Below, one piece after another: positions 9,424 to 61,611 of a stretch of DNA of 64,000 bases. The stretch lies in the sequence record PV636258.1. The stretch is one strand, 5' to 3'. Position 1 is the first letter of the stretch. Every line of letters begins with the position of its first letter. This DNA comes from a phage. The position numbers were made by a program, and so were the translations under genes. The notes under the pieces are model-generated. The model worked only from the letters and a program-made list of their open reading frames with translations. It ran no database searches and was not told the DNA's origin.

Positions 9424-9431
9424 TATAAATA
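9424..9431 (+). promoter_or_regulatory. T4-type late promoter-like box TATAAATA
   Basis: Exact TATAAATA 28 nt upstream of ATG at 9459. Confidence 0.3.
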
Positions 9432-13703: not shown

Positions 13704-13872
13704 AGTCATTCCCGAATATCGCCTTCACGCATTATCGGAAGGTGAACCCAGATCATCACGATGTCATGTTATGTTTCAAGAAGGTAAAATGATGGCCGAT
13801 GAAATCCTCTTCCTTCGAGCAGAGGTGATCCGTTTAAGTAACAATAAACCCCCAAAGAAATGAGGATATGTC

Positions 13873-14226
13873 ATGAGTTCTATTGAACAGCTGATCACAC
13901 CACAATATGTTTACAGCAATATAGTAGAGCACCTCCGCTCTCAATTGAATGTGAAGCAGTTGAACAGCTCTGAATTGAGTGGTTTAGAAATCACAGAAGT
14001 TGAAGTTGCGGCCTTCGGTAGTCGTTATCATTTTGTTGTCAATCACACTCAGGTTGAACAAGTCACTTCGAGCATTATTGACCTCGGCGCAACGAAGCCT
14101 TCCCGCGCAGAGCCGAAATCTGTGACACGCAATATTGTGGGTTATCTGGAAGAGACGTTAGAGCCAGGTGCCACCCACCCGATATTCAATTTCAACGCCG
14201 CCGTTATAAACGTTCAGGGAAGTTAA
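13873..14226 (+). CDS. hypothetical protein
   Basis: 117-aa ORF followed by terminator. Confidence 0.4.
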   Translation: MSSIEQLITPQYVYSNIVEHLRSQLNVKQLNSSELSGLEITEVEVAAFGSRYHFVVNHTQVEQVTSSIIDLGATKPSRAEPKSVTRNIVGYLEETLEPGATHPIFNFNAAVINVQGS

Positions 14227-58611: not shown

Positions 58612-59415
58612 ATGAATTTACCATCATTGCCCAAAACTGAGAGAACACATAAAAGTGATTTCTGGCCGACTGTGATCAAATACCGCGCCTTTACAGCAGG
58701 GCAACAGACCATGTTACTTCAGGTTGCTGATCCGAACACTCCTATGGGTGAGCGCGTGGCAACATTGGAGCAACTATTTGACAGTTGTGTTGATGCTGGC
58801 GTTCCCTTTAGTAAACTGCCAATCGGTGTTACTGAAGAAGTATTTTTAAAGATGCGCTGTATATCTATCGGCGAGGTCATGAAGATACGTTACAAATGTA
58901 ACAATAAAGTTCAAGCCGACACAAATGAAGGTGAAGAACCAGTTTCTGGTGTTAAAGATTGTGGCCAAGAGCTTGTGTTACCGATCCCGCTCAATCAGGT
59001 AAAATGCGTGTCCCCAGAAGGCTTCAGGGAGACGTTTGATCTACCAGGTGGTTATCATATAAAGATGCGCCAGCCGTCCTTCTCGGATGCCTCAGTGCTT
59101 AATGAAGCATCCTCTGTTGAACAAATGATTGCCACCTTTATCGATTGCCTGTATGACGACGATGGTCAGGTTTGGAAGGTGGAAAATCCGGCTGAACCTG
59201 GTATCAATCCAGAAGTTGCTAAAGAACGCCAACGCATTAAGGATGAATTTGTCAAATGGGTTGGGGACAATATCGAATCTGAGATTGTTCAGGACATTTC
59301 GAATGATTTCTTTAAAAAGATTCCGCGTATTCGTTACGCGACAAAAATTAAATGCCCTTCGTGTGGGAAAGAACACGAAGTCAAATTTAACAGTGTCACC
59401 GAGATTTTCATTTAA
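58612..59415 (+). CDS. putative baseplate protein with C-terminal zinc ribbon
   Basis: 267-aa ORF with GGAG RBS upstream of gp5-like gene; C-terminal KCPSCGKEHE; function by context. Confidence 0.45.
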   Translation: MNLPSLPKTERTHKSDFWPTVIKYRAFTAGQQTMLLQVADPNTPMGERVATLEQLFDSCVDAGVPFSKLPIGVTEEVFLKMRCISIGEVMKIRYKCNNKVQADTNEGEEPVSGVKDCGQELVLPIPLNQVKCVSPEGFRETFDLPGGYHIKMRQPSFSDASVLNEASSVEQMIATFIDCLYDDDGQVWKVENPAEPGINPEVAKERQRIKDEFVKWVGDNIESEIVQDISNDFFKKIPRIRYATKIKCPSCGKEHEVKFNSVTEIFI

Positions 59416-59564
59416 TTTTTGAAATTGATTTACTCTCCTATTTTGTGATGTGTGACGAATTAAAGGCACACGGCTATAGCATATTTGAAATCAGTGAATC
59501 GATGCCGTGGCATCTTGATTTGCTTACCGAGACACTGAAAATTAGATTGTCTAAGAAATCTTCC

Positions 59565-59590
59565 AACCCCACGTAATGTGGGGTTTTCTT
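59565..59590 (+). terminator. intrinsic terminator
   Basis: AACCCCACGTAATGTGGGGTTTTCTT. Confidence 0.55.
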
Positions 59591-59921
59591 CGCTTACCTG
59601 TATTACCGTTTAAGAAAGGATTGTTTAACCCGAAATTGCTATATCACCATTGTTCCTGATATGAATGTTGTGTAAATCTGGTTTGAATTTGTTTTGAAAC
59701 AAAAATAATGCTTTTCTACGCATGTTCTGAGGTGTACAGTATTTTCCTCGCCTTTATGCCTCCATGGCATTGGAATGGGACTGCCTGTCAAGGCGGTGTT
59801 ACGAGCTTCAGCGAGTAGGAACGAAAAGAACAAAGGTTGAACGGAAGCAGAGCTTCCTATAATATATTATTCGACAGATTTCAAATCCCCGCCATAAATA
59901 TCACATGATTCTAATTGACTA

Positions 59922-61547
59922 ATGGGTTTCAATATGTTAGACAACTTGCGTTGGTTTTACGGGCGCGTTGAAGACGTGAATGATCCCGATCAAAACGGGC
60001 GCGTCGCAGTACGCATCTATGGGGTGCACACGGAGGATACCACTCTCCTGCCTACAGAATTATTGCCTTGGGGTAAAATGCTTATGCCAGCATCTAACGC
60101 ATCCTCGGCAGGTTTAGGCTGGTCTCCGACGGGTATCACTGTCGGCTCTGACGTTATGGGGTTTGCTTTGGATGAAGCATATCAGAACATCCGTATTGCA
60201 TGGGTATGGCCAGCAGCAACACCAACAGATGGGTCAGATACAAACCCATTGGCGCTGGGCCAGGTCGTTCAATCTATAGAAAGGCAGAAGTATAATGCCG
60301 TCGAGAATGTTCCTGTTAAGATTGAGGATGAACCACAACCGGATCCACAACCACCAGTAGACGGTTATGATCCTGAGAAGTGGATGACCGTGGCTCGTGG
60401 GGAATTGGGCGTCAAAGAATATTCTGGTAAGTTCAATAACAACCCAAGGATATTGGAATATCATAAGACAACTTCCCTGGGGGCTTCAGAAGATGAAGTT
60501 AGTTGGTGTGCGTCGTTTGTTGGATGGGTTCTGATACAGGCCGGATATACATCAACACGTTCTGCTTTGGCTCGCTCATATCTACAATGGGGGTCTCCTC
60601 TGTCAGAACCACGTTACGGCGCTGTTGTAGTGTTCCGGCGCGGGAACAACCCGACATTCGGTCACGTTGCATTCGTTCAGAAATTTGACGCCAACTACGT
60701 TTGGTGTATCGGGGGAAACCAATCCGATTCTGTGAAGGTGAGCCGTTTTAGCCGCTCATCCGTGTTGGGTTATCGTTGGCCAGGTCCAGCAACTACAGCT
60801 TCAGCAGCTCCGGCACAACAAAACGGTAAATGGTCTGAACCTATTCCAGATCGTACCCCGAAAGTCCAAGAAACACCGCCTCCTTCTGGTCGTGTTCAGG
60901 ATATTGACAACACAGGAGAGGTATCGGTTCCTTCGGCTGGGGGGTCTCGTTATCCATACAACAATGTTATGGCTTCTCGCGCTGGGCATATTATGGAGGT
61001 CGATGACACTCCAGGCGGGGAACGTTTGCATTGGATGCACTCTTCTGGGTCTTATAAGCAAATGCTTCCTGACGGTGATGTTGTTAATAAATCAGTCAAA
61101 GATCATTATGACCTAACGATGTTCGACAAACGTTATTATGTGGGGCGCGATCATAACCTGACTATCGGCGGGACTGAAGTACAGCGTAAGACAGGAGAAG
61201 TTTACCACTTGCACTCTTCTAACTATTCCAATGTGGTCGCTGGAACAGCGTTGATGAAATTTTCCCAATTGGCTGAGATACAGGCACAGAACGTGTTGCG
61301 TCTCATCTGTGAAATGTTTGAAGTGTCTAACACTTTGAAGGTTCCTAAGATACTGGCAACTGAAATAATTTGCGATAAATTATCGGTCGCACAGACTATT
61401 GAAGGCAACATCAAATATGCTGAAGGCGCTGGTCGCGCCGCCTCACGTGCGGGGGCAACTCCTGTAACAACTACAGGCCCAGGTCCAATTGATATAAAAC
61501 CGGAGTTAGAGGATAACGGTGGCAATTTTGGTGGTAAAGGCGCATGA
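59922..61547 (+). CDS. 5: baseplate hub / tail-associated cell-puncturing protein (gp5-like) with CHAP/NlpC-P60-type peptidoglycan hydrolase domain
   Basis: N-terminal OB-domain signature WFYGRVEDVNDPDQNGRVAVRIYGVHT ... LPWGKMLMP as in T4 gp5; central WCASFVGW ... GHVAFV Cys/His hydrolase motif rather than a lysozyme. Confidence 0.75.
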   Translation: MGFNMLDNLRWFYGRVEDVNDPDQNGRVAVRIYGVHTEDTTLLPTELLPWGKMLMPASNASSAGLGWSPTGITVGSDVMGFALDEAYQNIRIAWVWPAATPTDGSDTNPLALGQVVQSIERQKYNAVENVPVKIEDEPQPDPQPPVDGYDPEKWMTVARGELGVKEYSGKFNNNPRILEYHKTTSLGASEDEVSWCASFVGWVLIQAGYTSTRSALARSYLQWGSPLSEPRYGAVVVFRRGNNPTFGHVAFVQKFDANYVWCIGGNQSDSVKVSRFSRSSVLGYRWPGPATTASAAPAQQNGKWSEPIPDRTPKVQETPPPSGRVQDIDNTGEVSVPSAGGSRYPYNNVMASRAGHIMEVDDTPGGERLHWMHSSGSYKQMLPDGDVVNKSVKDHYDLTMFDKRYYVGRDHNLTIGGTEVQRKTGEVYHLHSSNYSNVVAGTALMKFSQLAEIQAQNVLRLICEMFEVSNTLKVPKILATEIICDKLSVAQTIEGNIKYAEGAGRAASRAGATPVTTTGPGPIDIKPELEDNGGNFGGKGA

Positions 61548-61611
61548 TTACACTGGTGAGGGCAGATAATGCCCTCTCGTGCTGGAGAGGCAATATCCAA
61601 AGGGGTTTAAC

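Follow-up and report, generated by a model that had tools for sequence, protein, structure and literature searches.

What lies in the largest region without a convincing open reading frame (ORF) in an otherwise tightly packed stretch of phage DNA? The region in question, positions 59416-59921 of the window (the whole stretch of 64,000 nucleotides (nt) from record PV636258.1 that was analysed), is bounded by the stop codon of a gp26-like gene at 59415 and the start of a gp5-like ORF at 59922. The original prediction, made from the letters of the window alone, called it a non-coding gap and suggested three possible contents: a small RNA, a regulatory leader, and a site connected with packaging or a genome end. 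The gap proved to be composite. It contains a small gene, an intrinsic terminator, a regulatory module of about 190 nt with a folded core, and the late promoter and leader of gp5. Of these parts, the small gene, terminator and late promoter are of ordinary kinds that some relatives have annotated already. For the core element we found no described family to which it belongs; in kind, it is another orphan structured RNA motif of phage. The suggestion of a small RNA or regulatory leader is supported in kind, as a conserved paralogous element with covariation on the sense strand only is present, but the element itself had not been seen and the small gene had been missed.

The window comes from a Kuttervirus genome (Ackermannviridae, Vi01-like) that is nearly the same as that of Salmonella phage Chennai (MN953776.1), with about 100% identity. 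Over region 58600-61600 of the window the identity is 100% with Chennai and 98-99% with many further Kuttervirus genomes. In the Chennai annotation the gap measures 345 nt with the small ORF counted, and the runner-up among the gaps between coding sequences in the window measures 173 nt, so that the claim of the largest region without a convincing ORF holds.

The folded core and the module around it

The core element (copy A, 59748-59819, plus strand) was recognized by a covariance model, covariation and fold prediction. It consists of the hairpins P2 (59756-59760 / 59766-59770), P3 (59781-59786 / 59791-59796) and P4 (59799-59806 / 59811-59818), all on the plus strand, and a pseudoknot on the same strand, in which the P2 loop (59761-59765) pairs with AUGGG four bases downstream (59775-59779). 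P4 contains tandem G·A pairs (59803-59804 / 59813-59814). Both P2 and P3 are seen in covariation, in the RNAalifold prediction and in the single-sequence fold.

The fold was analysed in an alignment of 20 distinct sequences, which comprises both copies of the element, described below, from relatives of the phage. Standard pairs occupy 93% of the cells on the proposed structure, as compared to 33-46% when the partners are slid by 1-3 columns. Changes on both sides were observed in 6 base pairs, spread over P2, the pseudoknot, P3 and P4, and the covariation score was reached by none of 500 shuffles. RNAalifold recovers P2 and P3 without a given structure, and single-sequence folding of the window copy yields P2, P3 and P4. 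In P2, alignment pairs 9-23 and 10-22 are altered on both sides, with A-U/U-A in one variant and C-G/A-U in the other. In the pseudoknot, A-U at pair 17-29 is replaced by C-G in all four sequences of Taipeivirus and in both copies; this is the sole compensatory change behind the pseudoknot, whose connecting loops are 1, 0 and 4 nt long. The predicted core is a hairpin-type (H-type) pseudoknot, both stems of which show covariation and whose loop lengths we judge feasible.

The fold is restricted to the sense strand. Pair 35-50 is U·G in 18 of the 20 sequences, and on the other strand this and the other U·G pairs, like the tandem G·A pairs, would become C·A and pyrimidine-pyrimidine mismatches. 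The unpaired stretches of the core are invariant in sequence, and hence the conservation extends beyond the structure. A covariance model built from the alignment has a single match in the window (81 bits, E = 2e-21) and scores 86 bits at the second copy, and it has no other strong match in the rest of the Chennai genome. For a computational candidate, the predicted structure is well supported.

Lack of conservation in relatives, named by the original prediction as grounds for giving it up, is not what was observed. The core is 73-82% identical to its counterparts in Aglimvirinae phages and Taipeivirus, on a par with the flanking coding DNA, whereas the identity of the adjacent spacers is 32-62%; the core and the downstream hairpin taken together are 73-87% identical in the same phages. 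The scans for tRNAs and known RNA families proposed at the same time were run. ARAGORN found no tRNA or tmRNA gene over the whole window, in agreement with the earlier remark that no tRNA-like cloverleaf was seen, and the gathering score was reached by no Rfam 15 family in the window. At E values up to 10, Rfam produced two chance snoRNA matches over 59400-59960, neither of them on the core, and at E up to 1 it produced nothing at the loci of copies B and C or in the Serratia and Erwinia phages.

Several other interpretations of the core sequence were considered and rejected. ORFs at 59708-59818 (plus strand), 59764-59862 (plus strand) and 59639-59833 (minus strand) have unconserved ATG codons and indels whose lengths are not multiples of three; an antisense peptide is common to relatives because the underlying DNA is shared. 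An alternative pairing of GGAAUGG with a downstream UUCC was noted and not adopted. Finally, a genome-wide regulon of tandem-G·A hairpins was dismissed, as 6 such hairpins were found against 8.9 in shuffles.

The core lies at the centre of a putative regulatory module of about 190 nt (59683-59863), conserved across genera, in which the order of elements is block, structure, hairpin, gene. The upstream conserved block (59683-59719, plus strand) starts with TTGAAT (59683-59688), which is followed after 12 nt by AAAAAT-AATG-CTTTTCTAC (59701-59719); written whole, it is TTGAAT, 12 nt, AAAAATAATGCTTTTCTAC. It is common to the loci of copies A, B and C and to the Serratia and Erwinia phages, and in the whole Chennai genome its motif occurs at the A and B loci only. 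TTGAAT lies 11-13 nt 5' of the A-run in all five A-type lineages checked (the window, AV101, Menlow, Serratia 3M and one more), and the block also contains an A5-N3-4-T5 inverted repeat. We consider it a candidate start region of the element's transcript. A general promoter motif was rejected as an interpretation of the block, since in the Chennai genome it is confined to these loci.

Between the block and the core lies a conserved 5' segment (59724-59750, plus strand), with 83-100% identity in Kuttervirus and Aglimvirinae and 71% in Menlow. It may form a hairpin between TGAGG (59728-59732) and CCTCG (59746-59750), which is seen in the single-sequence fold and lost in Menlow. The core is followed by a purine-rich, weakly conserved linker (59820-59842, plus strand; 33-57% identity with other genera), and the AT skew is +0.18 to +0.27 across 59750-59899. 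Then comes a conserved hairpin, GGAAGC-AGA-GCTTCC (59843-59857), directly followed by TATAAT (59858-59863), with 81-87% identity; no strand was assigned to this feature. Its stem is retained through changes of sequence, being GGATGC/GCATCC in Menlow and GGCGGC/GCCGCC in Bue1. In a scan of Bue1 the hairpin was flagged as a terminator on the antisense strand. By eye, the antisense flank of the hairpin is T-rich in Aglimvirinae and Menlow. The sequence TTGAAC occurs 15 nt 5' of the TATAAT.

Copies, reduced forms and distribution

A BLAST search of the gap against the whole Chennai genome produced one other match, which covers 59758-59806 (49 nt) at 94% identity. This second copy (copy B; 13839-13924 of MN953776.1, minus strand) lies outside the window, upstream of a gp6-like baseplate wedge gene. 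The two copies have equal orientation to the gene and about equal distance to its start codon (116-118 nt). One hairpin differs between them, being AUGCC-UCCAU-GGCAU in copy A and GCAGCC-UCCAU-GGCUGC in copy B. P4 is variable in length: in copy A it ends in a 2-bp mini-hairpin GC-UUCA-GC with a 4-nt loop, whereas in copy B the place of the mini-hairpin is taken by a 7-bp one. A long hairpin, which carries two tandem G·A motifs and in whose stem C-G changes to U-A between genera, lies 5' of copy B, and the copy is followed by a CGCGCGAG box and GCTAAATA. In Kuttervirus, a terminator-like hairpin with UUUUGAUU is found 3' of copy B. The gp6 "late promoter" Porf217 in Table S2 of the phage AG3 paper (PMC3121705) is the reverse complement of the conserved block 5' of copy B; the TATTAATA within Porf217 is a palindrome and therefore reads alike on both strands.

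Variants are shared between the copies within genomes. In Mansal, some of the B-type P4 is found in copy A, the P3 variant of an AV101-like genome is identical in both copies, and in Taipeivirus an identical pseudoknot change is present in both. Since copies A and B exchange sequence, some of the compensatory "events" may be one event that was copied.

A reduced form (copy C, about 129470-129540 of the Chennai genome, minus strand, outside the window) lies upstream of the sliding-clamp gene (gp45). It consists of two CGAG/CGAG tandem-G·A hairpins, and its covariance model score of 18 bits is weak. The sequence CGAGTTGTGAG...CAACGAG is common to the clamp locus and the stem 5' of copy B, and the locus is kept between Kuttervirus and Taipeivirus. 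Reduced forms were also found upstream of gp5 in Serratia (Miltonvirus) and Erwinia (Bue1) phages, and upstream of gp6 in Serratia phage phiMAM1. The loci of copies A, B and C rank among the largest intergenic gaps of the genome, with 345, 363 and 338 nt, and two of them are situated at points of divergent transcription.

The element has a restricted distribution. A scan of IMG/VR with the core pattern found it in Ackermannviridae only, at two sites per genome; matches on other contigs were due to chance and lie in G+C-rich sequence. By BLAST, it occupies two places per record in the listed Kuttervirus, Agtrevirus and Limestonevirus records; in Taipeivirus one place was found by BLAST, and both copies were found directly. 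A scan of metagenomes yielded two real matches, on Ackermannviridae contigs, and one chance match, and there were no matches to the core in 185,579 genomes of bacterial and archaeal species (one genome for each). An apparent match in an Enterococcus phage proved to be mislabelled Kuttervirus-like DNA. The records OR844942.1 and OR844944.1 ("Enterococcus phage Efm 3-10", UNVERIFIED_ORG) are Kuttervirus-like and contain the gp6-like gene and copy B.

A literature search found no paper on an RNA element at this locus. The AG3 and LIMEstone papers list here the terminator and the late promoter only (AG3: PMC3121705).

The draft contigs KC139523.1, KC139563.1 and KC139564.1 of phages FSL SP-063 and FSL SP-029 end inside the 49-nt repeat common to both copies. 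As the repeat sits there, these are assembly breaks and not genome ends, and it accounts for the fact that some draft assemblies break at this locus. The suggestion of a genome end or packaging site was rejected for this reason and because related records are circular or circularly permuted, with arbitrary start points.

Genes, terminator and promoter on either side

On the left, the gap is flanked by the gp26-like baseplate hub gene (58612-59415, plus strand; Pfam T4_baseplate, 1.3e-51; PHROG 150, baseplate hub), and on the right by the gp5-like baseplate hub and tail lysozyme gene (59934-61547, plus strand; PHROG 430, E = 2.4e-156; Pfam Gp5_OB and CHAP). The latter is followed by a gp25-like gene. 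There is a 6-bp offset between the window start and position 58600 in the comparison with Chennai; the window thus differs from the Chennai record by at least one small indel upstream of 58600.

Immediately downstream of the gp26-like gene there is a small conserved gene (plus strand, ending at 59576). Starting from ATG 59448, it would encode 42 amino acids; the frame is open, and the protein is conserved, from 59415. The protein is kept in 8 phages from seven genus-level lineages (Kuttervirus, Agtrevirus, Limestonevirus, the AV101 lineage, Taipeivirus, Miltonvirus and Nezavisimistyvirus), and the variable columns of their alignment fall at codon positions 1, 2 and 3 in 12, 6 and 30 cases, respectively. 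The ORF 59415-59576 has a full-length match to PHROG 9633 (profile positions 1-49 of 49, E = 1.9e-36) and a faint one to PHROG 634, "baseplate hub assembly catalyst" (T4 gp51-like), which covers profile positions 63-107 of 121 only (E = 0.0035). No Pfam match was found for it. The ORF is annotated in Chennai, Det7, LIMEstone1, AV101, SKML-39 and Bue1, and it is called as a gene in 17 genomes, the contig look-up having returned complete genomes only. It is absent from the annotation of many records.

By these comparisons of sequence, the 42-codon ORF is a real gene, and it is predicted to be coupled to the gp26-like gene. Its conserved frame opens 33 nt 5' of ATG 59448, at a codon that overlaps the gp26 stop. 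This codon reads ATG in Aglimvirinae (TAATG) and ATT in the window, and the Serratia and Erwinia phages have ATC or ATA there; this suggests a coupled or non-canonical start at 59415 rather than at ATG 59448.

The small gene is followed by an intrinsic terminator (59565-59593, plus strand) ending the operon of gp26 and the small ORF. The arms of its 8-bp stem are 59565-59572 and 59578-59585, followed by UUUCUUCG, with UUUCUU 3' of the stem in the RNA. The hairpin has an energy of -13.2 kcal/mol (z = -3.41), and none of 200 shuffles was equally stable. In other genera a hairpin of like shape is found at this position, with altered stem sequences. It is annotated in LIMEstone1, Mooltan and Menlow, and the AG3 paper lists it as Torf083 (PMC3121705). 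The site thus has the G+C-rich hairpin, the U-run and the location at an operon end that are expected of an intrinsic terminator, and the hairpin originally predicted at 59565-59590 is confirmed by fold, conservation and annotation in relatives.

The region between the terminator and the module (59594-59682, no strand assigned) is an AT-rich, weakly conserved spacer, with 50-62% identity to other genera and 16% to Bue1. It has no stable fold (z = +1.06). A search for repeats within the window found none besides the arms of the terminator, and no iterons. The G+C content is 0.31-0.33 at 59600-59750 and at 59850-59950, as expected from the AT-rich stretches described initially.

A predicted T4-type late promoter of the gp5-like gene, CATAAATA, is located at 59893-59900 (plus strand). 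A near-late-promoter had been reported at 59892-59899; its presence is upheld, and the real site is one base to the right. The sequence agrees with the TATAAATA-like -10 element in 7 of 8 positions. It is unchanged in seven of the eight aligned phages; the exception is Bue1, which has ACATAAATA, displaced by two bases. The LIMEstone1 annotation contains a putative late promoter at this site, and the AG3 paper lists the late promoter of this gene as Porf084 (PMC3121705). In the window, ATAAATA is depleted (6 occurrences observed, 10.9 expected). On the plus strand it occurs at 9425, 53783 and 58577, 29-41 nt 5' of annotated plus-strand gene starts, the last of these (58577-58583) being the late-promoter motif 29 nt upstream of the gp26-like gene; the ATAAATA of gp5 (59894, plus strand) is 22-34 nt 5' of the gp5 start. 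Both the depletion and the placement fit use of this motif as a late promoter core. Among the proteins annotated in Chennai are a late-transcription sigma factor, a transcription factor for late promoters and a sliding clamp (homologues of T4 gp55, gp33 and gp45), and homologues of the same proteins are reported for AG3 (PMC3121705). P4 and the late promoter are separated by a variable distance of about 45 to 76 nt, which argues against a phased DNA activator site.

Downstream of the promoter there is a short late leader of gp5 (59901-59933, plus strand). ATG 59922 is present in Kuttervirus only, whereas ATG 59934 (CAATATGTTAGAC) is the sole gp5 start kept in all genera, and it is annotated as the start in Mansal. 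The true start of gp5 is probably 59934 rather than 59922, and many records probably have it annotated 12 nt too early. Occlusion of the start as in T4 lysozyme was considered and rejected: the RNAalifold helix 59726-59735 / 59932-59941 has no covariation, three of its pairs are G·U and one position is mismatched, and Menlow does not keep it.

Given that the small gene is real and that gp5 likely starts at 59934, the genuinely non-coding part of the gap is about 59594-59933. Coding sequence makes up the left third of the gap, and the late promoter with the short gp5 leader takes up the final 40 nt. The description of the gap as non-coding therefore stands for this part, and does not stand for 59448-59576, which belongs to a real gene with a frame open from 59415.

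Possible functions and known systems

From the arrangement and conservation of the module we infer, tentatively and at somewhat short of an even chance, that the element is transcribed from the upstream block and acts as a cis-acting leader of transcripts starting 5' of the late promoter, where it would bind a factor that controls read-on into the gene. Transcription of the module would begin at a start within the conserved block, and the module would act in cis on the transcripts begun upstream of the proximal late promoter. The invariant unpaired nucleotides, together with those of the pseudoknot, may bind a trans-acting factor, which could be a phage or host protein or a small ligand. Its binding would decide whether these transcripts pass the hairpin 59843-59857, and thus whether the baseplate gene is expressed from them. 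Transcripts from the proximal late promoter would not contain the element and would escape the control. This reading agrees with the placement of the element 5' of the same genes, which is fixed in every genus, and with the presence of a conserved, paralogous, sense-strand fold 5' of the late promoters in front of two baseplate genes. Attenuation-type leaders usually have the same arrangement, with block, structure, hairpin and gene in this order.

A number of observations weigh against a cis-acting leader. The fold is not more stable than that of shuffled sequence (z = -0.67), and independent compensatory events are few, about 5-6, with gene conversion between the copies able to spread one event to both. 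Neither the window gap nor the other loci provide a good promoter: no convincing sense-strand promoter, including sigma-70-like candidates with N16-18 spacing, was found 5' of the element in the former, and only weak, non-conserved sigma-70 candidates were found at the latter. The hairpin 59843-59857 is not called as a terminator on the sense strand, as its 3' flank UAUAAUAU is a poor U-tract. At copy B no terminator-like hairpin precedes the gene in Aglimvirinae and Taipeivirus. The hairpin 3' of the element is thus kept at copy A, and at copy B only in Kuttervirus, so that attenuation is not a shared feature. The gp45 locus contains neither the pseudoknot nor P3. Hairpins with tandem G·A pairs are stable in single-stranded DNA as well, and a literature search found no transcriptome for this phage family. 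As regards riboswitches, a fold with covariation, as expected of an aptamer, is present but limited to one phage family and 20 distinct sequences, and a conserved expression platform was not found, as the hairpin after the element is conserved at copy A only.

Some of the same observations bear on an explanation that we consider unlikely, that of a trans-acting small RNA produced from copies A and B. In the window this RNA would extend from about 59716 to the hairpin 59843-59857 (about 150 nt), and both copies would have one target in common, for instance a protein of the host or phage that they sequester, and would not act on the gene downstream. The near identity of the copies, held alike by gene conversion, and the unpaired stretches conserved in sequence and not in structure alone agree with such an RNA. 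Its 3' end could be provided by the hairpin present 3' of copy A in all genera checked and by the terminator-like hairpin of copy B in Kuttervirus, but the poor U-tract after the former and the lack of any terminator before the gene at copy B in Aglimvirinae and Taipeivirus do not agree with this. The late promoter is located downstream of the element, and hence the late gp5 mRNA has no need of it. On the other hand, the fixed place 5' of the same genes in all genera is the behaviour of a cis-element, and no promoter of the small RNA was identified.

Still somewhat less probable is a role of the element as DNA or in an R-loop, either as a replication origin of the T4 oriF/oriG type, whose transcript would remain annealed in an AT-rich unwinding region 3' of a promoter, or as a site where an RNA 3' end or extruded hairpins allow loading of the clamp and thereby activate the late promoter. 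In this case the hairpins would form in the displaced sense strand of DNA or in the primer RNA. In single-stranded DNA, GCGAAGC hairpins and those with tandem G·A pairs have unusual stability, and T4 oriE is located in the gene 5 region. The three copies per genome occupy three of the largest gaps, two of them at divergent transcription, and one of the loci precedes the clamp gene itself. Moreover, the sense strand is rich in purines and in A+T 3' of P4, and the upstream block contains the A5-N3-4-T5 inverted repeat. The variable spacing to the late promoter is neutral in this respect. However, the 72 nt of the core are conserved with covariation and a pseudoknot, whereas the R-loop origins of T4 need no specific downstream sequence (PMC3016281). 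There are no iterons, no recognizable middle promoter of the MotA type, and no MotA-type box conserved across genera.

A bolder version of the same idea, to which we assign very little probability, is that the modules upstream of gp5, gp6 and gp45 are built-in R-loop sites. A short structured transcript would remain annealed just 5' of the late promoter, and its 3' end would mimic the nick in the non-transcribed strand that serves as enhancer in T4-type late transcription, loading the clamp in the right orientation and/or priming leading-strand replication. If this were true, the expression of selected late genes would be turned on at a dedicated loading site made of RNA, and not at random nicks or replication forks, which would be a new link between replication and late transcription.

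It is improbable that the element is a regulatory cassette spread by recombination, as PeSLs are, with no specific RNA fold, its copies alike through gene conversion and its hairpins mere terminators or insulators; the variants shared within genomes (Mansal, AV101-like, Taipeivirus) and the hairpin of copy A abutting TATAAT, which recalls the composite terminator and promoter layout of PeSLs (PMC2839356, PMC4122927), agree with such a cassette, but there are 2-3 copies, which in every genus occupy fixed orthologous sites in front of conserved structural and replication genes, an N17 promoter is lacking, and compensatory changes occur in four helices.

The conserved pseudoknotted element in two baseplate leaders and its relative at the clamp gene point to an unrecognized layer of control in these T4-related phages. 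Binding of a ligand or a protein by the element would make it a new class of RNA. The Ackermannviridae (Vi01, CBA120, LIMEstone and relatives) are widely used in biocontrol and typing, and their regulation is known from sequence guesses only; the element offers a small, well-defined target for mutation and probing.

Among known systems, the nearest analogies in function are leaders of the attenuation type, the pseudoknot in the gene 32 leader of T4 and the put RNAs of HK022. With attenuation-type leaders (riboswitches and protein-binding leaders) the element shares a compact pseudoknotted fold, invariant unpaired bases, restriction to the sense strand, covariation, and a position 5' of a hairpin and a gene. 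It differs from them in that it has no Rfam match, the terminator-like hairpin is not conserved at copy B, and a late promoter is situated between the element and the gene.

The leader of T4 gene 32 mRNA contains a hairpin-type pseudoknot, which is an autoregulatory binding site far 5' of the start codon and is followed by an A/U-rich stretch. The likeness is in the type of pseudoknot, its distance from the start codon and the A/U-rich stretch. There is no similarity of sequence, and the element described here precedes two baseplate genes, not the gene of a single-stranded DNA-binding protein, and is joined to G·A hairpins.

The put RNAs of phage HK022 are cis-acting antiterminator stem-loops of about 70 nt, present in two copies per genome between a promoter and downstream terminators. 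The number of copies and the length are alike, as the action in cis would be. The put RNAs have no similarity of sequence or structure to the element, and contain neither a pseudoknot nor tandem G·A pairs.

PeSL cassettes are likewise repeated intergenic stem-loop sequences of T4-related genomes that recombine between copies. They form copy series mainly in hyperplastic regions beside variable genes and have a sigma-70-type -35/N17/-10 promoter (PMC2839356, PMC4122927). The element differs from them in copy number, placement, strict synteny and covariation in multiple helices, and it has no sigma-70 N17 promoter. With its few copies at fixed positions before core genes, and no sense-strand promoter of N16-18 spacing in the gap, we do not count it among the PeSLs.

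Finally, oriE, oriF and oriG of T4 are situated close to strand switches, with repEA, a gene near oriE, marked on the map; oriF and oriG each consist of a promoter and an AT-rich unwinding element (PMC3016281). The promoter is of the middle mode (a MotA box and a -10 element), and the origins share no motif and need no specific structure (PMC3016281). Few non-coding copies near strand switches, beside late structural genes and with AT-rich sequence downstream, are seen in both cases. In contrast to the T4 origins, the loci described here have in common a conserved structured core.

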